A stretch of DNA of 63,745 nt from an uncultured Lachnospiraceae bacterium (GCA_905235545.1 CAJOMI010000001.1:1-63745); one strand, 5' to 3'. Shown: positions 19,418-48,851, counted from the stretch's first letter. Notes: a model not told the origin generated them from the sequence alone. Program-made: numbers and translations.

Positions 19418-19429
19418 GAGGAGGAACCT

Positions 19430-19819: not shown

Positions 19820-19837
19820 TTTGAAAGGAGAAAACGA

Positions 19838-21553: not shown

Positions 21554-21632
21554 TAAAACAGCAGATGAGAACAATGTCGTATAAGACAGATACAACACGC
21601 AAAGCATTGAATTAGAAAAAGGAGAATAAGTT

Positions 21633-22133: not shown

Positions 22134-22248
22134 AATCTGAAATAGTAATCGAAGCATTCAAAAAGATAACAGTTCATCTTAATGTTCCGCGAAAAAGCGG
22201 GATATTAAGGTGGACTTTATCTGCATTATATATGTTGAGGAGAATAGA

Positions 22249-22611: not shown

Positions 22612-22613
22612 GT

Positions 22614-22817: not shown

Positions 22818-22821
22818 GAAT

Positions 22822-24183: not shown

Positions 24184-24187
24184 GTGA

Positions 24188-26728: not shown

Positions 26729-26731
26729 CGT

Positions 26732-27595: not shown

Positions 27596-27660
27596 AGAAT
27601 TTGTTAAAGTTGGACTGTCAGGGACAGAGTAAAGCTAAAGTATATGAGTAGGTGAAGCGT

Positions 27661-28986: not shown

Positions 28987-28998
28987 TAGGAGAAAATC

Positions 28999-30369: not shown

Positions 30370-31262
30370 TGGGATTATTTGATGTTTTAGATGATATTGC
30401 AGAACGGAATGTTCAAAAGACCGAGACCGGAGATAACAGAATGTTTGGAATTGTGGTTGGGGAGGTAGTGGATAACTATGATGCAGACCGTGCAGGAAGA
30501 GTGTGTGTCTCCATACAGACCCGTGATTCGGAGGCAAATATATTGAAGTGGGCAAGAGTTTCCACGCCATATATGGGCAAGGAATGGGGTATGTATTTTT
30601 TCCCGGAGGTCGGAGATCAAGTGCTTGTCGCATTCGACGGTGGTAATATCGAACGACCGTATATAATTGGAAGTATTCCCAGGGACACGGATACATTTTT
30701 AAAAAAGTCCAAGCATGAAAAGAATAAGAAAAAACGTATTGTGACAAAGAGTGGTAATGCCATTGAGATAACGGATGGCACCTCTGAGGATGATATGGCG
30801 GAAACGTCATCTGTACCGTCAGCCACGGATGTGGCAGGTGGAGGTGTACCGGGATCTGCGGGCGGAGCAGCCATGGAAGGTGATAAGATCGTAATCATGA
30901 CTCCGGATGAGAAACACAGTGTCACTCTGGATGATGGAAAAAATCTCATTCAGATCAAAGATAAAGAAGGCAAATGTGATATTAAGATGCAGACCGTAGA
31001 CGGAACCATTAATGTCAATGCTGCCAGAAAGCTCATCATAAAAGTGGGCGAGACGATCAAAATTACCATGAACGGAGATTCCGGCAAGCTTTTAGTAGAG
31101 GCAAAGGATGTAGCGGTAGACTCCACCGGAAAGGTATCTGTTTCCGCAACCGGTAAAAATGAGATTTCAGCGGCCAATGTCAATATCAGCTCCAACAGTA
31201 CCATGAAGTTGCAGGCCAACACGATGGTATCGGTTGAGGGTAAACCGATAAAATTGGGATAA
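30369..31262 (+). CDS. VgrG / gp5-like spike protein (OB fold + beta-helix), 297 aa
   Basis: MFGIVVGEVVDNYDADRAGRVCVSIQ…WARVSTPYMGKEWGMYFFPEVGDQVLVAFDGGNIERPYIIGS is the gp5/VgrG OB signature. The C-terminus has a repetitive beta-helix-like sequence. The start overlaps the previous stop (TGATG). Confidence 0.8.
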   Translation: MGLFDVLDDIAERNVQKTETGDNRMFGIVVGEVVDNYDADRAGRVCVSIQTRDSEANILKWARVSTPYMGKEWGMYFFPEVGDQVLVAFDGGNIERPYIIGSIPRDTDTFLKKSKHEKNKKKRIVTKSGNAIEITDGTSEDDMAETSSVPSATDVAGGGVPGSAGGAAMEGDKIVIMTPDEKHSVTLDDGKNLIQIKDKEGKCDIKMQTVDGTINVNAARKLIIKVGETIKITMNGDSGKLLVEAKDVAVDSTGKVSVSATGKNEISAANVNISSNSTMKLQANTMVSVEGKPIKLG

Positions 31263-31264
31263 TA

Positions 31265-31298
31265 TGTGACTGTTTTGTGAGTATAACAGTGGTATAGT
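31265..31298 (+). promoter_or_regulatory. regulon promoter P4 (baseplate/ATPase operon): TGTGACT (31265-31271), TGTGAGT (31276-31282), N10, TATAGT (31293-31298)
   Basis: Same phasing and spacing as P1-P3. It lies in the 143-nt gap between the spike and gp25 genes. Confidence 0.55.
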
Positions 31299-31405
31299 TT
31301 ATCTTATCAGAGAAGACTTCCACTTTTGTAAGTGGTGAGGGATAGATACCAATATGTCTTCGTGGGAGTCTGGTCTTATTATCATTATTTAACAGGAGAA
31401 ATGCT

Positions 31406-31864
31406 ATGGCAGACAAAGATTTTTTGGGTGAGGGGATGAAGTTCCCACCGCAAATTAACAAAGCGACCGGACGATTTGTTACCGTGAGCGAGGAACAAAG
31501 CGTCAGACAGTCGGTGTATCTGATCCTGATGACACAATTAGGAGAACGCCCATTGAGGGAGAACTTTGGAAGCAATCTTATGAGCTATACATTTATGGAT
31601 TTGAGCGTTACAAGAATTAATATTCTGATTCGAACGCTGAAGGAACAGATATTGAATCAGGAGCCACGTATTGAGGATTTGAGAATAACGCCCAGTGAGG
31701 AATCAGGTAACGGAAGGATCATATTCGATATCGAATATACGGTTGTTGCAACCAATACAAGAGACAATCTTGTATTTCCGTTTTATTTGAACCAGGAGAC
31801 AGAAGTAAGAGAGGAAGAGCCAGAGAATTATGAGCCTATACCAGTCGAAGAAATTGAATATTGA
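31406..31864 (+). CDS. GPW/gp25-like baseplate wedge protein
   Basis: FLGEGMKFPPQIN…EEQSVRQSVYLILMTQLGERPLRENFGSNL is the gp25 signature. Confidence 0.85.
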   Translation: MADKDFLGEGMKFPPQINKATGRFVTVSEEQSVRQSVYLILMTQLGERPLRENFGSNLMSYTFMDLSVTRINILIRTLKEQILNQEPRIEDLRITPSEESGNGRIIFDIEYTVVATNTRDNLVFPFYLNQETEVREEEPENYEPIPVEEIEY

Positions 31865-34853
31865 TACGAGGACCGAGGAGGATATCAGGCGTGAGGTGAT
31901 CCGTCTTGCAAAGAATTACGAGACCGGATGGGAACCGGATGAGGAGAATCCGGATGTGGGATCTGCGCTTGCCAATGTGTTTGCCCATGAAGTTTCTGAG
32001 AACATAGATCGGATGAATGAAATTATGGACCGGTATCACACGGAGTTCGTTAATATGCTCGATATTTCACTGTTGCCTGCAAAACCGGCCAGTTCTATCG
32101 TTGTATGTGAATTAGCGGATGATACCATACCGGGGGCGGGAATCCCAAAGGGAACAAAACTTCTTACAGATTCCGAAGAACCGATTGTGTTTGAGACGGA
32201 ACACAGTCTTTATGTGACGAGTTCGCAGATCAATGCAGCCTTTATGACGGATAAAGAGACGGGTGCGATCGTGCCGATTTTCGGAAATTTTTACAATCCG
32301 GAACTGATTCCCGGGGAAACGCTGCTTTCTGAGTATACCGGTCATGACGGCATGATGGGAAATGCACAGATGCATCCATTTACCTTGTTCGGAGAGAACG
32401 GTGGGATAGAAAGAAATGTTGTGATCTTTTACCATTCTACGGTTTTTGATTGTGAAAATGATGATATCTATGTACGGATAGAAGGCGGAGAAGAACTTAT
32501 TTCCGATATCAGGGAAAAACGGGTGCGCTTTGCATATCTGTCAGAGGACGGAATAAAAGATTATCCATACTGTGAGCTTCGACATGACGGACAGACATTT
32601 GTACTTCACAAATATGAGGCGAATCGCAAGATTAATGCAGGCACAAAACAATACAGCATGCTGATTATGATCGCAGACAGGGCACCGTCGGAATCCAGAC
32701 ATGTGAACCGTATTACGTTTTCCGCACACGGGAAACCGGTGAAAGCAGAGAATGTCAACAACGGCTCCAATGATCTGGAAACAGAGAAGTTCCAGCCATT
32801 TACGGATACGATTTCTTTGTATGATGATTGTTATATATGCCATGATAATTATTTTTCAAAGGCAGGTGCAAGAATCAACGTATCCTTTAATCTGTCAATC
32901 AAGGAACACAAGGTAAGTCTTACGGCAGAGCAGGTCGAGGAGAGTCTGAAGGTAATAAAAAGAAAGCCAAAGACGGTATCTCATGAAGTGCCGGGTGATT
33001 GTTATGTCGAAGAGGTAGTCTTTGAATATTTCAATGGGACAGGATGGAAGAAGCTTCCGGCTATGACGGATATGAGAGGACTGTTTTCGACGGAGAATTC
33101 CGGCGGTAGATGTGAGATTTCCTTTATCTGTCCGGAAGATTGGGCGGGACAGGTAACCGGATCTTATGAGGGACGCTGTATCCGGATGCAGGTTACGAAA
33201 GCGGAGAATTGCTATATGCGTCCATGTATACATCATTATCCGGAGATCACAGATCTGGAGATTTCCTATACATACGAAAATCAATACGTTGACGCAGAAC
33301 GTGCGGAGACAATTATAGGTACCTCGCGTTGCGAGATTACGAGCAAGCTTAAGGCAGAGAATGGATATATAACCTTTCAGGCAGGGAGTTATAAAGAGGA
33401 TGCACTGTATCTCGGATTCTCCAAGCCTATGGAATCTGGACCTGTCAGCATTCTTTTCAATTTGGCGGACAGCATGGAATATGAAGGGTTGAAATGTCGC
33501 TTTGAGTACGTATCTTCGGAAGGTTTTAAACCTATGAAGATTTTGGATTATACGCAGGAATTTACCCATTCCGGAGTTGTTTTGTTCATTCCTCCGGCAG
33601 ACATGCATTCCATGGTGCTTGAGGGGAAAAATCAATATTGGATTCGTGTGATCAGAAGTCATGGGAATGAGAATTCGGAGAAACAGGAGAATCTGCCGCT
33701 GGTGAAAGATATTTGCCTGAATGCTGTGCAGGTATCCAATATAGAGACCAGAACAACACAGAGTTTCTTTGTGGAAGAGGTTACGCCGGGAATGCAGTTT
33801 TATCTTGGAGTGAATCATATCTTAGATGTGGATGTCTGGGTGAATGAGATGGGACGTCATTCCAGGGAGAGGATGATCTCCATGTGGGAGGAGGATCCGG
33901 AAAATGTAATCGTAGAACAGGACAGTATGGGCGGCATTACTGCTTTTTACAGACGGTGGCAGGAGACGGACCGTCTGGACACTGCGGAGAATCCAAGAAG
34001 CTATCAGCTTGACCGGCTGCTCAACCGCATCATATTCGGTGATGGAATAAAGACATGGATTCCGAGTGTTACGGATGATGAAGCGGTAAGGTGTACGGTG
34101 CGTTGTTGTAACGGAAAATACGGAAATGTGGACGTGGATATGATAACAGAGCCTCAGGGCTATCTCATGTATATAGGGAAAATAACCAATCCCGTAAAGG
34201 CATACGGTGGCAGTGATATCGAGGAGATTGATAAAGCGCTTAGCAGAGGAGCCGGCATATTGAGCAGTCGGAACCGTCTCGTCACCATGCAGGATTATAT
34301 ACGTGCAATTCAGGCATATTCCGATACGATCGCGCAGGTTAAGGGCATTGTGGGACGAACCAAGAACGGCAGAGGAAAACAGGGCGATCTTACGTTTGTT
34401 TTGTTGATGAAAGATTTTGCGGATGGTTCCTATGCGTTTCATCGCATTGTGCGCGGATTGACAGACTATCTGTTAGAACGGTCGGAAATTACAGTTACAG
34501 AGAATTATCTTCAAATTGTGGAACCTACCTTTGTGGAACTTTCGGTATCGTTGTGGATCAATGTGATCAATATGGATGAAAGTTTTGAAATACAGTCTCT
34601 TATGCAGCAGGCTCTTGCGGAATATCTGGACCCTGTGAATAGTCCCGGATTGACAATTGGAACATTGCCTCGCAAATCTCAGCTTTTAATTCGGTTGAAT
34701 AGTCTGAAGAACAAGGCAATCGTTAAGAAATCCATTGTGATCGCCAAATATCGGGATGAAAAGGGTGTACACGAGATGGATCTGGAAGATGTGAATGTAA
34801 CACCGTTTATGATAGCGAAAAACGGGGAGCATAAGGTACATATATTGAATTAG
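31830..34853 (+). CDS. baseplate J / gp6-like wedge protein (Afp11-like), 1007 aa
   Basis: Its size, its position after gp25 and its N-terminus (…EEDIRREVIRLAKNYETGWEPDEENPDVGSALANVFA…) fit the family. It overlaps the gp25 3' end by 35 nt. Confidence 0.6.
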   Translation: MSLYQSKKLNIDTRTEEDIRREVIRLAKNYETGWEPDEENPDVGSALANVFAHEVSENIDRMNEIMDRYHTEFVNMLDISLLPAKPASSIVVCELADDTIPGAGIPKGTKLLTDSEEPIVFETEHSLYVTSSQINAAFMTDKETGAIVPIFGNFYNPELIPGETLLSEYTGHDGMMGNAQMHPFTLFGENGGIERNVVIFYHSTVFDCENDDIYVRIEGGEELISDIREKRVRFAYLSEDGIKDYPYCELRHDGQTFVLHKYEANRKINAGTKQYSMLIMIADRAPSESRHVNRITFSAHGKPVKAENVNNGSNDLETEKFQPFTDTISLYDDCYICHDNYFSKAGARINVSFNLSIKEHKVSLTAEQVEESLKVIKRKPKTVSHEVPGDCYVEEVVFEYFNGTGWKKLPAMTDMRGLFSTENSGGRCEISFICPEDWAGQVTGSYEGRCIRMQVTKAENCYMRPCIHHYPEITDLEISYTYENQYVDAERAETIIGTSRCEITSKLKAENGYITFQAGSYKEDALYLGFSKPMESGPVSILFNLADSMEYEGLKCRFEYVSSEGFKPMKILDYTQEFTHSGVVLFIPPADMHSMVLEGKNQYWIRVIRSHGNENSEKQENLPLVKDICLNAVQVSNIETRTTQSFFVEEVTPGMQFYLGVNHILDVDVWVNEMGRHSRERMISMWEEDPENVIVEQDSMGGITAFYRRWQETDRLDTAENPRSYQLDRLLNRIIFGDGIKTWIPSVTDDEAVRCTVRCCNGKYGNVDVDMITEPQGYLMYIGKITNPVKAYGGSDIEEIDKALSRGAGILSSRNRLVTMQDYIRAIQAYSDTIAQVKGIVGRTKNGRGKQGDLTFVLLMKDFADGSYAFHRIVRGLTDYLLERSEITVTENYLQIVEPTFVELSVSLWINVINMDESFEIQSLMQQALAEYLDPVNSPGLTIGTLPRKSQLLIRLNSLKNKAIVKKSIVIAKYRDEKGVHEMDLEDVNVTPFMIAKNGEHKVHILN

Positions 34854-34917
34854 CAGGGAATAGATAAAGAGGATTGAATTTTGTAAGTGCCGATCTATAT
34901 TTAATGTACGAGGAGAG

Positions 34918-37047
34918 ATGGAAATGCTGGAGTATATTAGCAGTGACAGAAAAACCTATGATGAGCGTTATGAGGAAGCGGTTTCCCGAATACCGCTCTA
35001 TACAAAGGAATGGACCAATTTTAATCCATCCGATCCGGGAATCACTATTTTGGAGGTGCTTACCGGATATGAGACATTGGCACAGGAACATCTCGACAGG
35101 GTTCCGTTTACCGTGCAGGAAAATCTTCTTAAAATGATGGGATTCCGTATACGAAAGGGGAGGCCGGCAAGACTTCTTCTCTCTGCGGAGGGGGTGCAAA
35201 GTAATGTGTCTCTTCCTGCAAATCACAGATTTGTGATAGGGGATCTGATTTTTGAGACAAACAGAAAAATTGACCTTACCGGTGCGAAGATGACAGGGAT
35301 CTATTCCAAAACAGGTAATGGATTTAAGGATTGTTCCGGTCTTTTAGACAAGGAGACAAGAGTGCCGCAAAGTATATTCGGAAAACATCCGAAGGCAGGA
35401 AATGCCGTATATTTTGTGACGGACAAACTCCCGGCACCTTCTGAGGAAATGATTCTTTATGTGGAACTCAAAATGTCTGCCGACAGAAATCCTCTGACAG
35501 AGAAGATGAAAAATCCTTTTGCGGATGTGGAATTTCAGGTTTTGACGGCTGATGGATTTGTGCCGTGTAAGACAAGAGATTTTACCAGTGCTTTTTTGAC
35601 CAGCGGGGAGATCAGAGTACGCATGCCGGAGACAGAACCAATCTGGTCGGGAAACAGTGATAAGGAAGAAGAGATACCGTCACAGCCCGGGTATTTGGTC
35701 CGTGCGATACTAAAGGAGGCAAATTATGATGTGGCTCCGAGAGTGACATCTGTTTATCCGTTCCTTTTTGAGGTATGGCAGAAGTTCTCTATGTCAGAGT
35801 GTACCACTTATCAAAGAACTTCAGATATTACCGTCAGAAGTTCTATTGTCGGCGACGCATATATTGATGTATACTGTAAAGAGGAGAAGGGGAGTTCCTA
35901 CCGCAAGTATATGTATACATCTTCTTTTGACGAACCGGGACGCTATTACAGACAGACGATGGGAGAAGATGGATTTTATCATATTGATTTTGACAGGAAT
36001 ATAACCGGTTTCGGACCGGAAAAAGTCAAGAACTGTGTTAAGGTTGTATGTTACACCGAGGAGGTTATGCGCCAGTACGCACTCGGAAATGTAATGGGAT
36101 ATGATGATCAGGTGATCGATCTTCCGTTTAAAAATCTGGTATCGGAAGGATTTTCCGTGATTGCAAGACGGGAAGATGGCATGGGCGGATATATATATGA
36201 TTTTGTTCGTCCCGATTACGAGGCAGAAGATGCGTTGTGCTATCATTTACTGGAACATGATGGTAAGATTTTGATTGAGGATGCGGGAGATTTTATAGGT
36301 GCGGAATTGTTTCTGGCGGGTATTTCCGTAACCCGTGGCAGCGAGGGAAATATACGGGCGGGCAATGAACTTTTATCTGCAAATCCTGTGGCTGATGTAC
36401 CGGTACGTTTCTTCAATCCGGGGCCCGGAACAGGAGGAGCATACAGAGAACGCTTATCGGATGTGCGTCACAGATTTCTGGCGGATATGGAGAAATCCTA
36501 TACTGCAGTGACAGCATCTGATTTCGAAAAGCTGGTAAAGAGCACACCGGGGCTGATTATTCACAAGGCACGGGCGTATATGGACGAGGAAAAGAATATG
36601 GCAAGAATTGCCGTGAAGCCGGGTAATGATGAGGAATTTCCGAAATTGACGGAATATTACAAAAAGATCATTATGGAACATCTTGACTCGAGAAGGCTTC
36701 TTTCCACAAGGATAGAACTGACATCACCGGTATATACCAGAGTCAATGTGAGCGGCACGGTATATGTGAAGCTTAACTACGACAACAGTCTGGAACAGAT
36801 AGAGCAATGCATACGCGAGAAAATTGATTACATCCATACCGATAAAAATTTTGGTGAGAGACTGTCATTTGATGATTGTTTCCATGCAATCGAGTTGTTG
36901 GATTGTGTGAAGAATGTATATGATCTTTCCGTGTTGCCGCATTCACTGGCACATGCAAAGCTTGTTGAGGCAGACATTGTGCCGGATGACAACTGCCTGC
37001 TGTACCCGGGGGATATCAAGATAGAGGTTGTCACCTACGATCGTTAA
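34918..37047 (+). CDS. second large baseplate wedge protein (Afp12/gp7-position, baseplate-J-related), 709 aa
   Basis: YDERYEEAVSRIPLYTKEWTNFNPSDPGITILEVLTGYETLAQEHLDRV is typical of putative baseplate assembly proteins. Alternative ATG at 34924. Confidence 0.55.
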   Translation: MEMLEYISSDRKTYDERYEEAVSRIPLYTKEWTNFNPSDPGITILEVLTGYETLAQEHLDRVPFTVQENLLKMMGFRIRKGRPARLLLSAEGVQSNVSLPANHRFVIGDLIFETNRKIDLTGAKMTGIYSKTGNGFKDCSGLLDKETRVPQSIFGKHPKAGNAVYFVTDKLPAPSEEMILYVELKMSADRNPLTEKMKNPFADVEFQVLTADGFVPCKTRDFTSAFLTSGEIRVRMPETEPIWSGNSDKEEEIPSQPGYLVRAILKEANYDVAPRVTSVYPFLFEVWQKFSMSECTTYQRTSDITVRSSIVGDAYIDVYCKEEKGSSYRKYMYTSSFDEPGRYYRQTMGEDGFYHIDFDRNITGFGPEKVKNCVKVVCYTEEVMRQYALGNVMGYDDQVIDLPFKNLVSEGFSVIARREDGMGGYIYDFVRPDYEAEDALCYHLLEHDGKILIEDAGDFIGAELFLAGISVTRGSEGNIRAGNELLSANPVADVPVRFFNPGPGTGGAYRERLSDVRHRFLADMEKSYTAVTASDFEKLVKSTPGLIIHKARAYMDEEKNMARIAVKPGNDEEFPKLTEYYKKIIMEHLDSRRLLSTRIELTSPVYTRVNVSGTVYVKLNYDNSLEQIEQCIREKIDYIHTDKNFGERLSFDDCFHAIELLDCVKNVYDLSVLPHSLAHAKLVEADIVPDDNCLLYPGDIKIEVVTYDR

Positions 37048-37059
37048 TGGAGGGATACT

Positions 37060-38142
37060 ATGGCAAGAACTGTTTACAGCATTAAAAAGAATCGTTTAAA
37101 GCAGTCCTACGGAGAAGGCATTTCAATGGATCAGAATGCCACGATTTATCTGGACGAACATACCTCTGTACACAGGCTGTATCTAAAGAGTGTGGATGCT
37201 GCCGAGGAAGATGCGGAGTGGGGAAGATTCTCTTTTCGGACACATTTGTCTGAGGAGCAGGTGCTTTATGTATATGCCTTTGCATCCAATGATTCCTATA
37301 TTCGGATGGGGCAGGAGGATGTGGATATCAATCGTTTTCTCACCTCAGGCAATATATCCGATGATGCAAAGAAGATCCTTATGTGCCAGCCGGGGGCACT
37401 TCGTTTTGTAGAAAAGAACGATCTGCTTCTGTACGGATTGAAGGGAAGATATCTGTATCTTTCCATTGAAGTTATGGGAGAGGGGGACGGATATCTGTCA
37501 GCACTTAAGGTGGAACGCGGTTCCGATGAATTTATGGAAGCATTTCCGGAAATCTATCGGGAAAATAATGACTTTTTTCATCGTTATATGAGTGTATTTA
37601 ACAGTATTTATAACGATTTTGACGACAATGTAAATAAATTGCCGAAGTTGCTTGATCTGGATGCTTGTCCGGATCTGCTGCTTCCGATGTATGCGGGTTG
37701 GATGGGAATTGATGTTCAAGGAGATTTCTTAAAACCGGATGCGTTGAGGGAACTTGTAAAAGAAGCATATACCTTGAATCGGATGAAGGGAACAAAGGAA
37801 TGTATAAAGAGAATATTGGAGATTGCTATTGATGAGCAGTTTCTTATCTTAGAAGAAAACCAGATGAAAGAGTATACAGATGCGAGAGCTTCCAATGAAG
37901 GAGTGTTTGATGTTACGATTCTGGTGAAGAAACAATTGAGTGAAAATGAGAGATATCAACTTTCTTATCTTTTGGAGCAATTTATGCCGGTCAGATGCCG
38001 TTTGAAACTGGAAAGCTTCCGGGATTCCTCTATTATGGACAGCCGAGTATATCTGGATATGAATGCTCAGGTGGCCGGTGCGAAAAATGCTGCATTAGAT
38101 GATTATTTGGGACTTGATGGCAATATTATATTAGAAGAATAA
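37060..38142 (+). CDS. P2 gpI-like phage tail protein (baseplate periphery)
   Basis: FPEIYRENNDFFHRYMSVFNSIYNDFDDNVNKLPKLLDLDACPDLLLPMYAGWMGIDV…LNRMKGTKECIKRILE follows the tail protein I domain pattern. Confidence 0.6.
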   Translation: MARTVYSIKKNRLKQSYGEGISMDQNATIYLDEHTSVHRLYLKSVDAAEEDAEWGRFSFRTHLSEEQVLYVYAFASNDSYIRMGQEDVDINRFLTSGNISDDAKKILMCQPGALRFVEKNDLLLYGLKGRYLYLSIEVMGEGDGYLSALKVERGSDEFMEAFPEIYRENNDFFHRYMSVFNSIYNDFDDNVNKLPKLLDLDACPDLLLPMYAGWMGIDVQGDFLKPDALRELVKEAYTLNRMKGTKECIKRILEIAIDEQFLILEENQMKEYTDARASNEGVFDVTILVKKQLSENERYQLSYLLEQFMPVRCRLKLESFRDSSIMDSRVYLDMNAQVAGAKNAALDDYLGLDGNIILEE

Positions 38143-38164
38143 ATATGACTTGGAGGACAAAGAT

Positions 38165-38464
38165 ATGACGATTAAAGAGATAAAAAAAGAAGGAGAAATT
38201 TTACTTGAAATCACGGGAAGGATTGATACCACAACGGCACCGGAGTTGCAGCAGGCGATATTGATCGCATTTCAAAAGGTAAAGAAACTGGTGATTGATT
38301 TTAAAGCCGTTGAGTACATATCAAGTGCCGGCTTGAGGGCTCTGTTGATCGGAGAGAAAACAGCCAAATCCAAGGGAAGCAGTATGGTCATTACCGGTGC
38401 AAATGATGCTGTAATTGATATATTTAAGGTGACAGGTTTTATCAATATTCTTACATTGGAATAG
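38165..38464 (+). CDS. STAS-domain anti-sigma-factor antagonist (SpoIIAA/RsbV-like)
   Basis: ITGRIDTTTAPELQQ…LVIDFKAVEYISSAGLRALL…MVITGANDAVIDIFKVTGF, with the conserved phosphorylatable Ser in ISSAGL. ATG 38165 follows GGAGGA (alternative TTG 38150). Confidence 0.8.
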   Translation: MTIKEIKKEGEILLEITGRIDTTTAPELQQAILIAFQKVKKLVIDFKAVEYISSAGLRALLIGEKTAKSKGSSMVITGANDAVIDIFKVTGFINILTLE

Positions 38465-38477
38465 GAGATATTACACA

Positions 38478-39578
38478 ATGAAAAAAGGGAAAATAATACT
38501 ACTGAATCTTGTTATAATTGCATATATCGTAACGGTGGCCGGCTGGTTCTTCAATGACGGAAGACTGTTTTATGGCGGATTTGGAACATTCACGGTTGTT
38601 CTCATCGCATTTATGATTGTTGCTATGATAAGGCCGAATACGCACAAGGATTTACAAGAGGAAGAAATCGAGACGGATGATCTTTATGATGACGGAGAGA
38701 AATATGAGGATAATGGTACGGAGGGAGCATTATCCGAAGATTTCGATGCAGCAGATACGTCGTATGAAACATTGGAACAAATATCGGAACGGTTTCGAAA
38801 TGCCAATCGTCACGATGATGATCAGAATGACGAAAATGGCAGTGAAGAATCGCAGGACGGAGAGGAAATTACGGGAGATATCAGTGAAGAGTCGCAGGAC
38901 GAAGAGGAAGGTACGGGAGATTTTAGCGCAGAGTCGCAGAGCGGAGAGGAAGGCACAGGAGATGTCAGTGCTTACCGGATGGCGATTGAAGATCTGAAGG
39001 AAGAACTTGTCGAGGTGCGTGAGGAGCTGGAACGCGCAAACCATGAATTGGCGGAATTACGGTCCAAAGAAAAGGATTCTCGCGAGAGGGGATTGTCCAT
39101 CCTTCCGGAGAGTATGATGCCAAAGGAAGAACTGGACACCATTAATATCGTTGACGTCGCAAAGGGTGTGGCCGATGAACTTCAAACGGATGCTTTTAAG
39201 GCAGGTCTCAGAGTACAGGTTTCCGCCGGAGAGGAACAGATTCTTGTGCGGGCGGATGAAGAACTTCTCCGTGTTTTGTTCCGCAACATTGTGGACAATT
39301 CAATCAAATATATGAATCGTCAGGGGATTCTGGTCATTACACTTTCTACGATAGGTGATGATCTGTTTGTGGTTTTAAAGGATAACGGAGACGGATTAGA
39401 TCCGGAAGAGACAAATCATATTTTTGAGTTAAATTATCAGGGCTCAAACCGAATATCCGGAAACGGTCTTGGACTTGCACAGGCAAAGGCTGTTGTGGAA
39501 TATTATGGTGGAAATATATATGCGAAATCAACGCAGGGTGGCGGTATGGGAATATATATTCAACTGCCGACATCGTGA
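38478..39578 (+). CDS. membrane-anchored HATPase_c protein with acidic repeats and no clear DHp/H-box
   Basis: Two N-terminal TM segments, then an acidic repeat region and a coiled coil. N-box FRNIVDNSIKY, G1 DNGDGL and G2 GNGLGLAQAK follow. Only a weak NHELAEL string sits where an H-box would be, and the DHp second helix seems missing. Confidence 0.6.
   Translation: MKKGKIILLNLVIIAYIVTVAGWFFNDGRLFYGGFGTFTVVLIAFMIVAMIRPNTHKDLQEEEIETDDLYDDGEKYEDNGTEGALSEDFDAADTSYETLEQISERFRNANRHDDDQNDENGSEESQDGEEITGDISEESQDEEEGTGDFSAESQSGEEGTGDVSAYRMAIEDLKEELVEVREELERANHELAELRSKEKDSRERGLSILPESMMPKEELDTINIVDVAKGVADELQTDAFKAGLRVQVSAGEEQILVRADEELLRVLFRNIVDNSIKYMNRQGILVITLSTIGDDLFVVLKDNGDGLDPEETNHIFELNYQGSNRISGNGLGLAQAKAVVEYYGGNIYAKSTQGGGMGIYIQLPTS
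38844..38972 (+). repeat. three 42-45-bp in-frame tandem repeats (EESQDGEEITGDIS-like)
   Basis: GA(A/G)(GAA/GAG)TCGCAG(G/A)(A/G)CG(G/A)AGAGGAA… recurs at 38844, 38886 and 38931. Confidence 0.7.
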
Positions 39579-39638
39579 TTGTGCAGAATGGTTTGCAGAA
39601 CTGACTGAGAGGTATGAATTATAACCGGAGGTGAAAAC

Positions 39639-39902
39639 ATGTCATTACTGTATTCGAATCTGTCGGACCGTTTGATGGAAGAGAATCGGCGGGTAAATGC
39701 AGAAAACAAACAAAAAAATGATATTCAGCAGGATCAGGATGAGGATGAGATGGGATATGCCTACGATGAGCCGGTGCATTTTGGATTTCTCAATGAGAAC
39801 AGAGGTATCTTTGTCAATAATGACGATGAGAATGCGCTGAATACGGCTAAAAGTGTATTTGACAAGACAGCAGTCTTTCGAGTAAAGCAGGACGAAGACT
39901 AG
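39639..39902 (+). CDS. small acidic hypothetical protein, 87 aa
   Basis: ORF with a GGAGGTGA RBS, in the same orientation, inside the operon. No family recognised. Confidence 0.4.
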   Translation: MSLLYSNLSDRLMEENRRVNAENKQKNDIQQDQDEDEMGYAYDEPVHFGFLNENRGIFVNNDDENALNTAKSVFDKTAVFRVKQDED

Positions 39903-39969: not shown

Positions 39970-42465
39970 TTGGCAGGTAGAAAGAAAAAAACGGATGAAA
40001 TGGAAGAACAGAATGTAGCGTTGGCGGAAACAAAGGGTACGAATGTTAAGAAGAAGTCGGATTCCGATGTGGAAGTGACGGGTGAAGAAAAGAAAAGAAC
40101 GCAAAGACCTTCTACGATAGACGGGAAGAAAGTCTGCGCATTTACGGGCTATGATGAATATATGCGGCATGTATTCCACTGTGTGAACACATGCCTTTCC
40201 GCATATTTGGAGAATATGAAGTTCACCTTTTCAAACGGACAGGGCGGATATAAAAACGTGCTCTATCCGGATTTGGAGATTGCTTCCGATTCCTGTAATG
40301 AGCAGATCATGAAATACGAGCAGATGTATGGGGAGCAGGAGGAAGTGGAAAAAGAGTATACGGAAAAAACAGGGGGAAAAGAAGAATTCGATGAGGATTT
40401 CCTTTCTCTGCTTGACGCATTTTCTGAGACTTCCGACAATGGGCAGGAAGAAAATTCAAAGAGCAACAAGAAATCTTCTGCCTCCGGTTCAAGCAAGGCA
40501 TTTGATGTGTTAGCACGTCTTGAATGGATATCGGCATGTGCGGAACGCACTGCGGAAAACGGAGTAAGGATGCCTTTTTACGAGCTTACAAAGAAGCTTG
40601 AAATGAGTCCTTTTGCAATGTTTACCTTTGCGAGTGGTGTGCTTTCTTCCACACAGACGGATTATGCCGGTATCTTCCAGATTGTGAATGAGAACGGCGG
40701 TCTCTCTTCTCCGACGATAGAAAGTGCGGCCAAAATCTTTTTCGGCCCCAATTATTCAATAACAGGGGCATACGGTGAGATGAGTGAATGCCTTGAAGTA
40801 TTGCTGCCAATCCTGGATCTTAGGGTAGTTTCCAGTATGCCGTTTTCCACGGTAATTTCTCCGGATAAGCGTATTATCGACTATTTGTTCGGCAAAGATC
40901 CTATGCGCCTTGATGAAAATTATATTCGTTTTTTCAAAATGCTTACGAATGATGAGGAACTGGATCCCATTATGGCGAATGATGGTCAACTTGAGGCAAT
41001 GAAAATATCCTACGGTGAGGGTGTCCGTATTTTCTCCTATTATGGAGACGAAGGAAGCGGAAGAAAGTTCTTTATACGTCATTTCTGCAAAGAAAACGAC
41101 CTTGGTGCGATATCGATCAATTGCAAGAAGTTGTTTGTATATGACTTTAATTTTGTGGAAAAGGCTCTGTGGGCAGTGACAAGAGAGTGTATCTTAACCA
41201 ATTCCTGCTGCTGTCTGGATGAGCTTACCTTTAGAGAGGATGAGAAGGAAAAATTCTACGGCTACATGGATCTGGCATTTGCAAAGCTTACGCAAAAGAA
41301 GATACTGGTATTTGCCATTAGCCGTGAGAAGTTAGCCATGAGAGATATTACCAAAGAAGAGGTGACGGAACTTGAGATACCGACCCCTACCAATGAGGAA
41401 CGCGAGAAATGCTGGAATTATTTTTCGGAAAAGTATGCGCTTGATAAGGATGTGGATAAGTTGGAGATGGCGACCAAGTTCCTTTTTACACCGGGTAAGA
41501 TCAAGTCCGCACTTCACAGTGCCAGAAGTCTTGCAACCATGAACAAGGAGATATTGATTTCACGCGCTACTCTGTTCCAGGGTTGTTACGGTCAGATGAG
41601 TTCGGAACTTACCCAGAAAGCTACTAAGATAAAGGCGAACTTTGGTTTTGAGGATATCGTTATGAATCGTGATCAGCGTGAGACGCTGGAGCATGCGATC
41701 GATCAGATGAACTTTAGAAAACAGGTATATGACGGTTGGCACTATACCAAGAAGTATCCATACGGACGAGGACTTTCAATTCTTCTGTTCGGAGCACCCG
41801 GTACCGGTAAATCCATGTGTGCCCAGGTTATCGCGCATGAACTGAATCTTGAACTTTACAGAGTCGATCTTTCAAAGGTTATTGATAAATACGTCGGTGA
41901 GACTGAAAAGTCTATTTCCATGATCTTTCGAGAGGCAAAGAAATGTAATGTCGTGTTGTTCTTTGATGAGTGTGATACCCTGTTTGCGAAGCGTTCCGAT
42001 GATGGAGGATCCAATCAGGCGTCCAACAATAATAAGACTGCTTTGCTGCTGCAGGAGGTTGAGGGATATGACGGTGTGTCTGTGCTTGCCACGAACTACA
42101 AGCATAATATAGATCCTGCGTTCTTCAGACGTATGAAATATATTGTAGAGTTCCAGTTCCCGGATGTGGACACGAGGGAGATGCTCTGGAACACTACGAT
42201 ACCGAAAGACACTCCTTTGGCCGATGATGTGGATATCCGATATCTGGCTGAAAAGTACGAGCTGGTTGGTGGTAATATCAAGAACTGTATACTGAATGCC
42301 GCTTTTCTGGCCGCAGCAGATCCTGAAGCCGAAGGAAAGGTACACATGGTACACTACCTGCAGGCTGTCAAATACGAGTTTGTTAAGGTTGGTAAAGTAT
42401 TTACACGTTCCGATTTTGAGCCTTATGCAGACCTGATCTTCGGAAAACAGGGCAGCCTGATATGA
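39970..42465 (+). CDS. Afp15-like CIS AAA+ ATPase, copy 1 (831 aa)
   Basis: The C-terminal AAA module has Walker A LLFGAPGTGKS, Walker B VVLFFDECD, and VLATNYKHNIDPAFFRRM. The N-terminal region is long and non-ATPase. TTG start after GAGGAG (alternative ATG 40000). Confidence 0.8.
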   Translation: MAGRKKKTDEMEEQNVALAETKGTNVKKKSDSDVEVTGEEKKRTQRPSTIDGKKVCAFTGYDEYMRHVFHCVNTCLSAYLENMKFTFSNGQGGYKNVLYPDLEIASDSCNEQIMKYEQMYGEQEEVEKEYTEKTGGKEEFDEDFLSLLDAFSETSDNGQEENSKSNKKSSASGSSKAFDVLARLEWISACAERTAENGVRMPFYELTKKLEMSPFAMFTFASGVLSSTQTDYAGIFQIVNENGGLSSPTIESAAKIFFGPNYSITGAYGEMSECLEVLLPILDLRVVSSMPFSTVISPDKRIIDYLFGKDPMRLDENYIRFFKMLTNDEELDPIMANDGQLEAMKISYGEGVRIFSYYGDEGSGRKFFIRHFCKENDLGAISINCKKLFVYDFNFVEKALWAVTRECILTNSCCCLDELTFREDEKEKFYGYMDLAFAKLTQKKILVFAISREKLAMRDITKEEVTELEIPTPTNEEREKCWNYFSEKYALDKDVDKLEMATKFLFTPGKIKSALHSARSLATMNKEILISRATLFQGCYGQMSSELTQKATKIKANFGFEDIVMNRDQRETLEHAIDQMNFRKQVYDGWHYTKKYPYGRGLSILLFGAPGTGKSMCAQVIAHELNLELYRVDLSKVIDKYVGETEKSISMIFREAKKCNVVLFFDECDTLFAKRSDDGGSNQASNNNKTALLLQEVEGYDGVSVLATNYKHNIDPAFFRRMKYIVEFQFPDVDTREMLWNTTIPKDTPLADDVDIRYLAEKYELVGGNIKNCILNAAFLAAADPEAEGKVHMVHYLQAVKYEFVKVGKVFTRSDFEPYADLIFGKQGSLI

Positions 42466-42569
42466 CAATAGATCAGAGCATTAGGGGGGCAAAATACCTT
42501 TTGACCCCAACATCATGATATAGATACATAATACTTCGTTAATTATTTTTCGGGAAACGGGGGGATAGT

Positions 42570-45500
42570 ATGGATGAAGTCGTATTGTCTGAAGAAGAGA
42601 TAAAAGAGCTGAAAAATCAGATTTTAAATGGTGTAAAAAATGCGAAAGCTCAAAATATAAAAGAAAGAAAACAAAAAATTTACAATGATAATGCAAATTT
42701 GATAAATGATTATCTGAAAAAACAAAGAGAACAGGAAATAGTACGGCGTAATAGAAAAAAGAAGTCCCGGACCGGTGGTAATAAGAATATCCAAAACAAT
42801 TATAATCGGACAGTAAAGAATGATCAGTCGGATAATTCTTTAAAGAATAATTTTATAAAGAAGGAAGAAGAAAAAAGGGAAGAGATCAATAACAGAATAA
42901 AGAAAAGCTTTCCGGAACCGGAAAAAACAGACGAAAATAAGCTTCCTGAGGTAGAAGGCGGGAAGGGTGTATTTGAGTTGCCACAAGATATGGAAATTGA
43001 AAAACAGCCTGAGGAGAAGAATGCAGGACAGGAAGATGAACTTATCTTAGAGATTAATGGAAAAGTGGTAGATATAGAGAATCTTGAGGAGAGAGTTTCC
43101 GCTGTACCGGGAATGGAAGAAGTAGAACAGAATGAAGAAAATGACCGGCAAGGTGACATTGCGGATCATGTGATCAATGAAGTCGGTGCAGCAAAGAATG
43201 AACCGAATAACGAAGTAGAGGAAGAAGCAAAGAATGAACGGAATAACGAAATAGAGGAAGAAGCAAAGAATGAACGGAATAATGAACCGAATAACGAAAT
43301 AGAGGAAGAAGCAAAGAATGAACGGAATAATGAACCGAAGGAAGAAGCAAAGAATGAACGGAATAATGAACCGAATAATGAAGTAGAGGACGCAGCAAAG
43401 AATGAACCGGAAATAGAATACGATGATTTTCTGAGTGGCTTATATTTTGTGCTGACCGGAAAAGAGAAGAGATATACTGCAGTAGAGAGAAATGAGCTTA
43501 TGGACAAAGACGTCGATAAGCGATTGTTATATCACCGTACGATGCAAAAAAAACTGGAACTTGATGCCGTTAACCAGATTAAAAAGGAAAGAAACAAAAA
43601 TGAGTTCAAAGACAAGATAAAAAATTTTGAAGAGAATATGCGGGATACTGACGGAATGAGGCGGATTGACGGTTTTCTTAAGATGGACTATACCATTTTT
43701 GATAACTTCGAAGACATCTATATTGTGTTGAACTTCGAAAAATTGAATAATGCAATTGAACAGTCGGAACATATTTATAAGGATGTGTTACCTTTAGCAG
43801 TCGAGGCCGGAACCATTGACGAGAACACCCGGGTGAATGTTACCGCGCTTGCAATGGCAATCGATGACTACAAGGAATATATGAATTATCGTATCATGAT
43901 AATAGCAGATGAGAATTATACGTTGGCATTAGACGAAGAACCGTTTAGAATGAACGCAGATGACGCTGCAATTTATGAGAGATTAGACAAGTTCACTTCA
44001 GACAATAATCTGAGTGAAAGAAACCTCAATACTTTGATGCACTTTGTTACATATAAGACCGGCATGAACGGTAATGACAAAGGTGATAGAAAAAGGAATC
44101 CTTTGTTTGCCGAACATTTTAATGATGAGAAGAGCAATATGCTTACCCGTATGCAGCAATACGGGTTTAGTGCTGAGGAAAAGGAAGAAAATGTTGATGA
44201 GGATATCGATGAGGATCTCGCTGCGCTTGAACAACAGGTAAAGGCTGAGGATGTTGATCAGGAGGCTGACAGGGAAGCTGCGAATATTCCTGAAGTCCCT
44301 GAGATACTTATTCCTAAGAGAAGAAGACAGCTTAATTATCTTATAACGGGAAATGATATTATGCCACAAGAGTTGCATGAGGGCGAAGAGAAAAACAGAA
44401 GTGACCTTGCGGGCAAGGCAAGAGAGATATATCAGGCGTGGGAGAATATGAATCCTGAACTTTCACTGGAAAGAGCTCTTCTTGATGTGTCCAAGTATGA
44501 GGAACAGGGTTTTATACTTCCGCCTGAGATACTTGAAGTGGTAAGGGCGGGAATCCGACCGGGAGAATCTCTTGAGGTAAGGAAGGCGAATGCAGATACT
44601 TTGGCTGAAGGAATGTATCGTGGAGATAATGAGGATGCTAAGCAACTTCCACATATATTGATCAGCAATTATATGCGGACTGATTTTTCAATATTTGATG
44701 CGCTGGATGATGAAGCAATCGTCAGTCATTACAACGAAGCAAAACGTCTGTTGAATTATGGTCTTTCTCTGCAGGAGCTGTTTTATCAGACAGCTGATAA
44801 TAAAACCTGTCTGCTTTCGCAGGACAGGGCAGATAATTTTTATGCCATTCTCTCCGCACTTAGGGATTATATGGATTACGCCACAATACGTATGGATATC
44901 ATTAGAAGTCCGTTTTATTCCCTGTTTGATGTTGATAAAGAGATTAAGGAACAGGATATTAAGCAGGTTGAGGATGCAGGTAAAGGAGAATATGAGGCAG
45001 ATTTGTTGATGTATATAAAAAAATATGCAGATATTGCTCCGTATATTGAAAAAGTAAAAAGAGGAGGCTTCTATGAACGTGCTTCGGGTTATGGATATGT
45101 TGATATAAATGAGTATCTTGATGAAAATCCGGAAATGCAGGAGAAATTCAGAGAGTATATCACACAGGAAAAGAATATGGAAATGTTTGCTGTACTTCCC
45201 CAACTGGTGGAGTATTATGGGGAGGAGGATGAGACAGCAATAGAAAATATTGCCCGAAGTAACGAATTGCGAATTGAGCGTAATAATTTTAACAATGTTC
45301 AAAAGGTTGTAGGCAGCAATAAGGATTATGATGAAGTGAAGAACGATCCGAAGTATGAAGAACAGACTGCAGGGCGTGAAGCTCTTTCGGAGAGGGCGGT
45401 TGAACTGATCAACAGTCTGAATGTTGAGGAAACGGATGCCAATATATGGCTGGATGAACTTATGGATACTGATGTGAGCATACTCGATAACATGTCTTCC

Positions 45501-48803: not shown

Positions 48804-48851
48804 ACGAGTCTTGACATGAAATGAGGTCAGGGATAGAAGAGGTGATATACA

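Follow-up and report, generated by a model that had tools for sequence, protein, structure and literature searches.

Results

Gene content of the locus

The window, that is the whole stretch of 63,745 nucleotides (63.7 kb) analysed here, comes from an uncultured Lachnospiraceae bacterium (GCA_905235545.1, CAJOMI010000001.1:1-63745) and contains a cluster of CIS genes with the following features:

18080-37047, + strand: CIS structural operon (Pfam, PHROGs and NCBIfam matches)
37060-38142, + strand: gpI/Cis12-like wedge protein, 360 aa (Pfam Tail_P2_I, E 8.7e-12; NCBIfam CIS12, partial match, and tail_TIGR02242)
38165-38464, + strand: SpoIIAA/RsbV-type STAS protein, 99 aa (Pfam STAS; TIGR00377; PDB neighbours)
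38478-39578, + strand: membrane-anchored HATPase_c protein without an H-box, 366 aa (Pfam HATPase_c, E 1.9e-20; AF2 model)
39639-39902, + strand: small acidic protein, 87 aa (45 of 80 loci, always ahead of the first AAA+ ATPase)
39970-42465, + strand: AAA+ ATPase 1 (Cis15-like), 831 aa (Pfam AAA, E 6.6e-27; 67 of 80 loci)
48852-51056, + strand: AAA+ ATPase 2 (WHD + AAA), a paralogue of ATPase 1 (Pfam; 36% identity to ATPase 1)

The structural operon encodes a cap protein (Pvc16_N), a PAAR-like DUF4280 protein, the sheath, the tube, an assembly chaperone, two CIS_tube initiators, YQBQ, a VgrG-like spike, gp25 and two Baseplate_J-like wedge proteins. Downstream, the gpI-like wedge gene (stop at 38142) is followed after 22 nt by the STAS gene and after a further 13 nt by the gene of the two-TM HATPase protein, and no terminator-like site was found between gpI and the ATPase in the window. 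This order, with a gap of about 20 nt after gpI, had been proposed in an original prediction made from the sequence, and is confirmed here. The small acidic protein has a conserved C-terminal motif, the His of which is not conserved. Membrane proteins are numerous in the cluster, and a response regulator encoded at 1132-1935 pairs with its own LytS-type kinase.

The layout of this module is conserved across Lachnospiraceae loci. Of the species-level loci, 45 extend for 8 kb or more to either side of the membrane HATPase gene; 43 of these contain a CIS ATPase, 41 contain both gpI and STAS and 25 contain an RsbW-like kinase; in the two loci that lack a CIS ATPase, the membrane HATPase gene adjoins a Cis13-like block. 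The gap between gpI and STAS has a median of 33 nt (54 related loci). Within the interval from gpI to the ATPase, compared in 44 loci, the HATPase was found in 42, STAS in 38, a TM-SH3 protein in 30, an ABC ATPase in 29 and an RsbW-like orthologue in 23. This ABC ATPase belongs to the ABC_tran family, lies after STAS and is fused to an RsbW-like domain in two loci (L005 and L006); it is absent from the window.

Lineage of the sheath and wedge proteins

In a PDB sequence comparison, the best solved relative of the window sheath is Cis2 of H. borinquense (9EZM, E 1.6e-106), followed by the sheaths of Streptomyces CIS-Sc (8BKY and 8BL4, E ~1e-93 to 1e-91), whereas the PVC, AFP, AlgoCIS and tCIS sheaths reach only E 1e-41 to 1e-51. 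The second wedge protein matches only Cis11 of CIS-Sc (9GTP) among solved structures. Judged by search E-values, the sheath and wedge of the window belong with the CIS-Sc and haloarchaeal CIS lineage, in agreement with the analogy to Streptomyces drawn in the original prediction. The studied members of this lineage work inside the producer cell: CIS-Sc is cytoplasmic (PMC12237407) and the haloarchaeal T6SS-like CIS is membrane-anchored (PMC11566945).

The STAS protein

The STAS protein exceeds the cut-offs of both Pfam STAS (E 1.4e-17; 63.8 bits, cut-off 22.6) and the anti-sigma-factor antagonist model TIGR00377 (71.3 bits, cut-off 53.45), and its PDB neighbours are the SpoIIAA-like 4hyl, TM1442, RsbV and SpoIIAA. 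The reading frame is open from TTG 38150 as well as from ATG 38165; the latter is preceded by a Shine-Dalgarno GGAGG at 38152-38156 and is probably the true start, giving 99 aa as in the orthologues. The site of the presumed switch is:

38324-38326, + strand: predicted phospho-acceptor Ser codon (Ser54 counted from ATG 38165; Ser59 from TTG 38150)

This codon specifies the second Ser of the motif ISSAGL, which aligns with Ser58 of SpoIIAA and with the serine of DSAGL in TM1442, and does not vary in any of 57 sequences (the window STAS protein and 56 CIS-linked orthologues). The STAS identity given in the original prediction therefore stands, as does its choice of the ISSAGL motif as the site of the Ser.

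A candidate kinase and phosphatase

The same gene string contains two further components of a partner switch, which the first-pass reading of the window had overlooked:

55236-56900, + strand: sensor phosphatase composed of a TM segment, ~175 extracytoplasmic aa, a second TM segment, HAMP and PP2C (SpoIIE) (Pfam SpoIIE, E 2.3e-50, and HAMP)
56961-57392, + strand: RsbW/SpoIIAB-type serine kinase (HATPase_c_2), 143 aa (Pfam E 2.7e-20; PDB RsbW 6m36)

The N, G1 and G2 motifs of the RsbW-like kinase are conserved in 34 sequences. The TM segments of the phosphatase span residues 22-40 and 217-235, its best NCBIfam match is SiaA (below cut-off), and the string LPGs-MFS-SpoIIE recurs downstream of the CIS ATPases in several loci. 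Just past the kinase gene lies a gene for a SleB-type cell-wall hydrolase.

In the window, kinase and phosphatase are encoded ~17-18 kb from STAS; in the related loci that were inspected, the RsbW-like gene lies beside STAS or is separated from it by one ABC ATPase gene. By sequence and gene position, the RsbW-like kinase is likely the cognate kinase of the STAS protein, and this kinase and the PP2C protein are better candidates for STAS cognates than the membrane HATPase, which the original prediction had put forward as the kinase. The pair of the window could also serve another STAS protein elsewhere in the genome. Furthermore, L095 has a 61%-identical RsbW-like gene within a self-contained SpoIIE-STAS-RsbW operon whose surroundings lack CIS genes, so this partner-switch family is not exclusive to CIS.

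Of the traits of an anti-sigma-factor antagonist, the STAS protein thus has an above-threshold domain, a conserved Ser and, in its neighbourhood, a HATPase_c_2 kinase and a PP2C protein. A regulated sigma factor was not found: Pfam gave no sigma-factor domain in the scanned window ORFs, nor in those related loci that were annotated, and such a factor could be encoded elsewhere in the genome. These components might form an ordinary transcriptional partner switch: a sigma factor encoded elsewhere, which drives the CIS operon or other genes, would be under the control of STAS, PP2C and the RsbW-like kinase, STAS would ride in the operon, and the HATPase would be an unrelated, degenerate sensor kinase. 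The agreement of STAS with the antagonist model, the best named matches of the kinase (RsbW and SpoIIAB) and the stand-alone operons of the same family outside CIS loci would all fit. We nevertheless consider this scheme improbable, given that no sigma-factor gene was found among the scanned ORFs of the window or the annotated related loci, that 54 loci keep STAS immediately behind the wedge gene, a position that would be unusual for a gene with only a regulatory function, and that the membrane HATPase is essentially confined to the CIS context.

Less probable still is that STAS, like MlaB, belongs to an ABC-type ATPase as an accessory subunit, with no phospho-switch at all. The ABC_tran ATPase that follows STAS in related loci, together with its RsbW-like fusions, would suit such a role, and STAS does have weak MlaB matches (NCBIfam 23 bits; PDB 7ch8, E 7e-6). 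The antagonist model, however, scores 71 bits against the 23 of MlaB, the phospho-serine motif is invariant, a kinase and a phosphatase are present in the cluster, and the window has no ABC ATPase of this kind.

The membrane-anchored HATPase protein

The protein encoded directly after STAS consists of the following parts:

38484-38627, + strand: TM hairpin, residues 3-24 and 28-50 (AF2 pLDDT 89-96; hydropathy scan)
38840-38970, + strand: 42-nt x 3.1 tandem repeat, encoding an acidic 14-aa x3 repeat (TRF)
38961-39092, + strand: single long helix, residues 162-205, where a DHp hairpin would be expected (AF2 model; alignment A1)
39135-39569, + strand: CA (ATP-binding) domain with invariant N, G1, F and G2 boxes (alignment A1; AF2 model)

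The outer loop of the TM hairpin is only 3 residues long, and the protein consequently has no extracytoplasmic sensor domain. The acidic repeat, disordered in the AF2 model, is an insertion specific to the subclade of the window and is missing in most homologues (alignment A1). No HisKA match was obtained for the protein, and the only His of the long helix is not conserved across 30 homologues (alignment A1), among which no conserved His was found that could form an H-box; residues 187-216 align only to the part of ZraS that follows the hairpin. In contrast to the H-box, the ATP-binding residues are invariant in the same alignment (N274, D302, G304, G306, G328, G330 and G332), and the best Foldseek matches of the model are the CA domains of HK853, ZraS and DivL. 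Pfam, TRF, the alignment and the model, in which the helical stretch is one long helix, thus bear out the two-TM protein with acidic repeat, helix and HATPase domain lacking an H-box that had been described from the sequence.

Of the hallmarks of a sensor histidine kinase, the protein therefore has the HATPase_c boxes and lacks both the DHp His and a paired response regulator, none adjoining its gene in the window or, as far as these were annotated, in related loci. It does not conform to the SpoIIAB/RsbW type either, being a membrane-anchored protein of 366 aa with a HATPase_c rather than a HATPase_c_2 domain. From sequence and model, we conclude that it derives from a histidine kinase whose phospho-acceptor His is missing. 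In three loci (L047, L050 and L059) it is kept without STAS or the RsbW-like kinase, which implies a role independent of STAS.

Could the membrane HATPase itself be the STAS serine kinase, as a membrane-located analogue of SpoIIAB/RsbW? As it has no His acceptor, any kinase activity would have to be exerted in trans. Its gene immediately follows STAS in the window; in related loci without an RsbW-like gene between the two, it lies on the STAS strand within 400 nt in 11 loci or within 2.5 kb in 12, and its ATP-binding boxes are invariant. Two contigs (L073 and L040) carry genes for SpoIIE, STAS and the ATPase and none of the RsbW-like type, the membrane HATPase being an intact ORF in L040 and only a tblastn match in L073. 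We still regard this assignment as rather unlikely: by fold as well as by sequence, the protein has a classical histidine kinase CA domain and not HATPase_c_2, a canonical RsbW-like kinase is present in the window and stands beside STAS in many loci, and the HATPase persists where STAS is missing. In the commonest alternative layout, moreover, the HATPase gene is on the opposite strand with a partner of its own, the TM-SH3 protein.

The fibre slot and a Cis13-like protein

No Afp13/Pvc13-type fibre gene directly follows the wedge genes, where STAS is found instead, exactly as the original prediction had it. Its broader statement that nothing in the window resembles a fibre does not hold in the strict sense, owing to a gene upstream of the structural operon:

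2068-3855, + strand: Cis13-slot (fibre-slot) orthologue, 595 aa (NCBIfam NF053767 CIS13; orthologue P0376)

The match to NF053767 (E 3.7e-26) is confined to the N-terminal 135 residues (8-142) and reaches 92 bits against a 370-bit cut-off; the protein comprises this N-terminal Cis13-like domain and a beta-rich remainder. Its end-to-end orthologue P0376 (E 1e-47) is encoded directly after Tail_P2_I in a CIS operon of Anaeromicrobium (L097). In the window, the gene heads a conserved block of envelope-protein genes upstream of the cap gene, and the same block precedes Pvc16_N in L089. By these sequence relationships, the cis13-like fibre-slot gene has probably moved from the slot after the wedge genes to 2068-3855.

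Among the matches listed, full-length identity of the Cis13-like protein across Lachnospiraceae is 59-86%; for sequences labelled Acetatifactor it is ~60%, compared with 41-48% for the wedge proteins, these sequences possibly not coming from the same genomes. No phage-fibre match and no PDB sequence match was found for it, and its AF2 monomer model is poor (pLDDT 54). The unassigned ORFs of the window gave no fibre match in Pfam or PHROGs.

A fibre-slot orthologue would also be compatible with a classical extracellular CIS, whose particles, released by lysis, bind targets via the Cis13-like protein or other, unrecognised fibres, with STAS, kinase, phosphatase and HATPase only timing production or lysis. 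The SleB-type hydrolase after the kinase could be placed in this scheme, and many eCIS operons, including those of Firmicutes, have no annotated Afp13 (PMC8213781). We give such a particle a small chance. The level of identity among the Cis13-like proteins is unlike that of a diversifying receptor-binding protein, a phage-fibre match is missing, the nearest solved sheath and wedge relatives act inside the cell, and the cluster encodes many membrane proteins.

Discussion

A partner switch as a candidate gate for the CIS

We tentatively propose that a partner-switching phospho-switch serves as a control and docking module that gates the Lachnospiraceae CIS at the membrane, a reading that we hold to be nearly as probable as its negation. 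More specifically, the RsbW-like kinase (56961) would phosphorylate the STAS serine (codon 38324-38326) and thereby keep the system off. Upon an extracytoplasmic cue sensed by the TM-HAMP-PP2C phosphatase (55236), STAS would be dephosphorylated and would then bind one of two GHKL proteins, the RsbW-like kinase or the membrane HATPase; through this binding the CIS would be licensed to assemble, to dock at the membrane or to fire. The old fibre slot would now be occupied by STAS, co-produced with the wedge, and next by the membrane-anchored ATP-binding protein. The sequence analysis establishes the domain identities, the invariant serine, the lack of an H-box, the conserved synteny and the lineage; from these we infer who phosphorylates whom, the contact between STAS and the membrane HATPase, and the post-translational nature of the output.

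The original prediction had envisaged a membrane-tethered or signal-triggered CIS without fibres. Signal triggering is plausible because a full partner-switching set is present, including a phosphatase with an extracytoplasmic sensing region; the fibre-less part of that claim fails on gene content, given the Cis13-like protein at 2068-3855.

A more specific version, which we consider doubtful, casts STAS as a phospho-regulated baseplate adaptor, the unphosphorylated form of which bridges the wedge to the membrane pseudo-kinase and so docks or triggers the CIS at the cytoplasmic membrane on an extracellular cue. The binding of SpoIIAB by SpoIIAA provides the model for such a bridge; the contacts of STAS with the HATPase and with the baseplate are conjectural.

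Significance

We found no published description of a CIS gated by such a partner switch. What triggers cytoplasmic or membrane-associated CIS is an open question, and in Streptomyces CisA alone is known, without its signal. The loci described here represent a widespread, unstudied CIS lineage of gut and rumen Lachnospiraceae with a signalling set inside the structural cluster, in which a single serine, a pair of enzymes and a membrane protein offer handles for tests of licensing. If the baseplate-adaptor version is true, the output of a partner switch in Gram-positive gut commensals would be the position and firing of an injection machine. Furthermore, a relocated fibre-slot gene can hide in a seemingly fibre-less cluster, a point of importance for surveys in which CIS are sorted by whether Afp13 or Cis13 is present.

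Comparison with known systems

Partner switches with an output other than a sigma factor include Bordetella BtrU/BtrV/BtrW, which acts on type III secretion, and Pseudomonas SiaA/SiaB/SiaC. Like the window, they combine a STAS-type switch, a GHKL serine kinase and PP2C with no sigma factor in the locus, and the TM-HAMP-PP2C architecture of the phosphatase is shared as well; as in BtrU/BtrV/BtrW, the output in the window would be a secretion or injection machine. Unlike in these systems, in the window the structural operon itself encodes the switch protein, immediately downstream of a baseplate gene, and the conserved set includes a fourth, membrane-anchored HATPase_c protein. The threonine phosphorylation pathway PpkA/PppA/Fha1 of T6SS likewise uses a kinase/phosphatase pair for post-translational control in response to envelope cues; it consists of a Hanks kinase, PP2C and FHA, whereas the window has a GHKL kinase, PP2C and STAS.

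For membrane adaptors, the lineage offers precedents in CisA (PMC12237407), the Anabaena tCIS protein Cis13 (PMC8894136) and Hbor_38620 (PMC11566945). The N-terminal domain of Anabaena Cis13 binds the baseplate, and the protein serves membrane attachment and not target binding (PMC8894136), so that there is precedent for the Cis13-like protein at 2068-3855 to have a function other than that of a fibre. Near the C-terminus of the Anabaena protein a TM helix is predicted (residues 122-154; PMC8894136), whereas the window protein is beta-rich over its 595 aa with no convincing TM helix; the tCIS sheath is also far more distant from that of the window (E 1e-46).

The T6SS-like CIS of H. borinquense, which provides the best sheath match, resembles the window in having two Cis11-like genes, Cis12 and Cis13, genes for multi-TM candidate anchors upstream of the core cluster, and a host without a Gram-negative envelope (PMC11566945). 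Its candidate anchor is a 6-TM protein, and the available part of its report describes no STAS/kinase/phosphatase/HATPase module; for the Lachnospiraceae system, membrane anchoring is a prediction.

The sheath and Cis11-like wedge of Streptomyces coelicolor CIS-Sc (PMC12237407) are among the closest solved relatives of the window proteins. Both systems occur in Gram-positive hosts, lack a classical fibre gene after the wedge genes and encode in that slot a membrane protein whose cytoplasmic part includes a long disordered stretch (PMC12237407). The HATPase gene, two genes after the wedge, thus occupies the position of a CisA-type adaptor and does not share its architecture: compared by description, CisA is bitopic, with a single TM segment and a periplasmic substrate-binding-like C-terminal domain, whereas the window protein has a TM hairpin and a cytoplasmic histidine-kinase-type CA domain. 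To the CIS-Sc scheme the window adds STAS, a serine kinase, a PP2C phosphatase and a Cis13-like gene elsewhere in the cluster.

Gene content of the cluster

Gene calls in the window were scanned against Pfam, PHROGs and NCBIfam. The forward strand carries all large open reading frames (ORFs) except one, and the genes are laid out as follows:

468-1935: LytS-type kinase and response regulator
2068-17915: seven genes, nearly without family matches
18080-38142: complete contractile injection system (CIS) core, Pvc16_N cap to Tail_P2_I
38150-39902: STAS protein, membrane HATPase and an 87-aa acidic protein
39970-51056: AAA+ ATPase, 2077-aa acidic protein and second AAA+ ATPase
51244-55163: LPG_synthase_C and 987-aa MFS fusion
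55236-57392: HAMP-SpoIIE phosphatase and HATPase_c_2 kinase
57408-61547: SleB-like hydrolase, second LPG_synthase_C and CspB

The core consists, in order, of the Pvc16_N cap, a PAAR-like DUF4280 protein, sheath, gp19-type tube, assembly chaperone, two CIS_tube proteins, YQBQ, a VgrG-like spike, gp25, two Baseplate_J-like proteins and Tail_P2_I (the gpI-like wedge gene, 37060-38142). Within it, 22822-26728 encodes a 453-aa protein whose N-terminal part is weakly tube-like and which shows about five repeats found by eye (W(E/A)F(D/N)xK...GNG), and an 846-aa candidate tape measure with three such by-eye repeats (HN..NEE.YRNLT.ITQE).

The LytS-type kinase is soluble (His_kinase and HATPase_c, 239 aa on the source contig). 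Together with its response regulator it precedes a block headed by a Cis13-like gene (2068-3855) both here and in L090 (7619-9634; L numbers denote related loci from genome and metagenome scans), an observation that also draws on L087 (7922-10804). The pair probably regulate transcription of the cluster. A conserved envelope-protein block (3860-17915) separates the Cis13-like gene from the cap gene; its members are a protein with a C-terminal transmembrane (TM) segment, a four-TM 843-aa protein, a TM and MORN protein, a signal-peptide protein that includes a TolC-like OEP segment, which is unusual for a Firmicute, and two signal-anchored paralogues (1035 and 1271 aa) that have G/N/D-rich linkers. 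This block may form a complex that spans the envelope or anchors the CIS.

The 2077-aa acidic protein (42570-48803; 12% E, 8.5% N) is encoded between the two paralogous AAA+ ATPases (ATPase 1, 39970-42465; ATPase 2, 48852-51056). It has no family match in the window scans and no internal repeats by BLAST, and its conservation is low, with 41-44% identity in the closest loci and no detectable counterpart in most. We regard it as a cargo or effector candidate. The two LPG_synthase_C (DUF2156) genes and the 987-aa fusion, which joins a multi-TM, sCache-like N-terminal part to an MFS transporter, occupy 51244-55163 and 58637-59689. A string of LPG_synthase_C, MFS and SpoIIE genes is also found 3' of the CIS ATPases in L017, L029, L031, L032, L047 and L091.

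A relocated Cis13-like gene

The original prediction held that nothing in the window resembles a fibre. This stands for the fibre slot, that is the place after the wedge gene: no fibre gene lies 3' of the wedge genes in the window, and the large unassigned ORFs have no fibre match in the Pfam, PHROGs and NCBIfam scans. Upstream of the window, the contig encodes S1-domain, carboxyltransferase and ABC proteins but no fibre. Variable slot genes of related loci were considered as fibres and rejected; they encode ABC ATPase, SBP, SDF, MatE, GNAT, SpoIIE and RsbW-like proteins.

However, the claim does not extend to the gene at 2068-3855. The N-terminal 135 residues of its product match the NCBIfam model 'CIS13 family contractile injection system protein' (E 3.7e-26, short of the cut-off for the full length), and this domain has 3969 representative homologues at E <= 0.001. 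The Anaeromicrobium protein P0376 is homologous to it end to end (E 1e-47), and the P0376 gene lies directly 3' of Tail_P2_I, at the 3' end of a CIS baseplate operon (L097) that has no STAS or HATPase gene. Because this homologue sits after Tail_P2_I, 2068-3855 is, judged by homology and gene order, a fibre-slot orthologue. In Lachnospiraceae the cis13-like gene has moved to the head of the envelope-protein block described above, which lies immediately upstream of the cap gene; in L065 it is placed after ATPase 2.

The Cis13-like protein is not a classical fibre. It shows 59-86% identity to the listed homologues over its full length, has no match among 50,697 phage records (tblastn) and yields a poor AF2 monomer model (pLDDT 54). 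In Acetatifactor-labelled sequences its identity is about 60% versus 41-48% for the wedge proteins, a comparison that is qualitative only, as the genomes may differ. Single-sequence and profile searches of the PDB gave no match. The poor model itself was set aside as structural evidence; Foldseek found for it no more than generic Ig/macroglobulin-like matches and, with a low TM score, a baseplate chain of phage phi812. The Cis13 of Anabaena forms a trimer on the baseplate and anchors the CIS in a membrane (PMC8894136), and by analogy a docking role can reasonably be proposed for the Cis13-like protein.

A STAS protein and a membrane HATPase in the fibre slot

The gpI-like gene ends at 38142, and the STAS ORF is open from a TTG at 38150. 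A GGAGG at 38152-38156 followed by an ATG at 38165 gives a 99-aa product, the same length as the orthologues; the STAS gene (38165-38464) is therefore separated from the wedge gene by 22 nt, in keeping with the gap of about 20 nt originally described. The protein scores 63.8 bits in Pfam and 71.3 bits, over the cut-off, with TIGR00377, and its closest solved relatives are 4hyl, TM1442, RsbV and SpoIIAA. On sequence we confidently assign it to the SpoIIAA/RsbV type. The second Ser of its ISSAGL motif (codon 38324-38326) aligns with SpoIIAA Ser58 and is invariant in 57 sequences (the window protein and 56 CIS-linked orthologues).

The membrane HATPase gene (38478-39578) begins 13 nt past the STAS stop. 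In the AF2 model of its product (mean pLDDT 72), a TM hairpin (residues 3-24 and 28-50) is followed by a disordered acidic region with a 42-nt x3.1 tandem repeat, one long helix (residues 162-205) and a CA domain (residues 220-364). The protein had been described as carrying a histidine-kinase-type ATP-binding domain without a convincing H-box. This is correct, and true of the whole family rather than of one protein, because 30 aligned homologues show invariant N, G1, F and G2 boxes and no conservation of the single His of the helix, residues 187-216 align to the post-hairpin part of ZraS (phmmer), and the Foldseek matches are HK853, ZraS and DivL. The stretch ANHELAELR was rejected as a degenerate H-box, its His being K, Q, R or A in homologues and the stretch aligning post-hairpin in ZraS. 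The 87-aa protein was rejected as a phosphotransfer partner because its His is not conserved.

Conservation and layout of the slot

The membrane HATPase family comprises more than 1000 proteins at E <= 0.001; among the 120 matches listed, all named ones are from Lachnospiraceae or Pseudobutyrivibrio, and no plasmid match was found. Relatives from Butyrivibrio, Pseudobutyrivibrio and Acetatifactor also have the locus. A scan of one genome per species yielded 80 loci, which were searched with the window proteins by tblastn (Table).

Table. Window genes detected in related loci (tblastn)
STAS: 61 of 80 loci
gpI: 57 of 80 loci
ATPase 1: 67 of 80 loci; 43 of the 45 loci flanked by 8 kb or more on each side
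RsbW-like kinase: 35 of 80 loci; 25 of the 45
SpoIIE: 20 of 80 loci
gpI and STAS together: 41 of the 45

The two full-flank loci lacking ATPase 1 adjoin the 2068-10947 block. The STAS count was borne out by HMM search, by which three loci (L047, L050 and L059) have wedge genes and the membrane HATPase and no STAS. The median gap between gpI and STAS is 33 nt (54 loci).

Two layouts are the commonest. The first, found in the window, places gpI, STAS, an optional ABC ATPase gene and HATPase on one strand; the second has gpI, STAS, the optional ABC ATPase gene and an RsbW-like gene on one strand, and HATPase with a TM-SH3_3 gene on the other. In 44 loci, the interval from gpI to the ATPase contains HATPase (42), STAS (38), TM-SH3 (30), ABC ATPase (29), RsbW-like (23) and SpoIIE (8) genes. 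An ABC_tran ATPase gene directly follows STAS in 29 of the 44, and a TM and SH3_3 gene directly follows the membrane HATPase in 30 (see also L035, 2956-3600, and L025, 10579-11184); the window has neither. An RsbW-like domain is fused to an ABC-type ATPase in L005 and L006 (11552-12742). L048 (CAVITM010000024.1) is a Lachnospiraceae-type CIS/STAS/HATPase locus on a contig labelled Moraxellaceae, which is probably mis-binned. L013/L003 (13977-15178; Pseudobutyrivibrio MAG), where the membrane HATPase and ATPases are present, gpI and STAS were not detected and an insertion sequence (rve transposase) lies nearby, may be disrupted.

A possible partner switch

A canonical partner-switching set is present in the window. 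The kinase at 56961-57392 is a HATPase_c_2 protein (73 bits) whose nearest PDB entry is RsbW and whose N, G1 and G2 motifs are conserved in 34 sequences. The phosphatase (55236-56900) has an extracytoplasmic domain of about 175 aa between two TM segments, and then HAMP and PP2C domains. This pair lies about 17-18 kb from STAS; the LPG_synthase_C, MFS fusion, SpoIIE (and RsbW-like) string recurs 3' of the CIS ATPases in several loci, and STAS is present in all full-flank loci with an RsbW-like kinase. No sigma factor was found in the scanned window ORFs. The partner-switch family is not exclusive to CIS, since the metagenome locus L095 (5682-8260) holds a stand-alone SpoIIE-STAS-RsbW operon, its kinase 61% identical to that of the window, among transketolase, MscS and C39 ABC exporter genes.

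We tentatively propose, at somewhat less than even confidence, that a partner switch gates the CIS post-translationally; beyond the domain assignments, each step is inferred. The RsbW-like kinase would phosphorylate Ser54 of STAS, the sensor PP2C would strip the phosphate upon an extracytoplasmic cue, and dephospho-STAS would then bind a GHKL partner. The fourth conserved member is the membrane HATPase, most likely a membrane-located STAS-binding partner, an anchor or a second kinase. Its ATP site is intact, but it lacks both a His acceptor and a sensor loop, and most loci pair it with a TM-SH3 wall-binding protein. Because three loci keep it without STAS, it must also have a STAS-independent role.

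Comparison with known systems

The best solved match of the sheath is 9EZM (E 1.6e-106), Cis2 of a membrane-anchored haloarchaeal T6SS-like CIS from H. borinquense, followed by Streptomyces CIS-Sc (about 1e-93 to 1e-91); for the sheaths of PVC, AFP, AlgoCIS and tCIS the values are 1e-41 to 1e-51. CIS-Sc Cis11 is the only match of the second wedge protein. CIS-Sc lacks fibres, and its firing requires CisA, a membrane protein whose gene occupies the fibre slot (PMC12237407). Taken together, this relatedness and the fibreless, CisA-dependent CIS-Sc support the analogy with Streptomyces that the original prediction had drawn.

A missing Afp13 is common: the analysis by Geller et al. covers 629 Afp13 sequences from 1425 eCIS operons, with the Firmicute examples marked 'No afp13 in operon' in their table (PMC8213781), and a metagenome survey describes gut-derived CIS as lacking Cis13 by its own criteria (PMC12210884). 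Our literature search turned up no account of a Lachnospiraceae CIS, nor any link between CIS and STAS, partner switching or anti-sigma antagonists. What is new here, compared to these systems, is that the fibre slot holds a conserved phospho-switch with a membrane HATPase, and that the fibre-slot gene is relocated.
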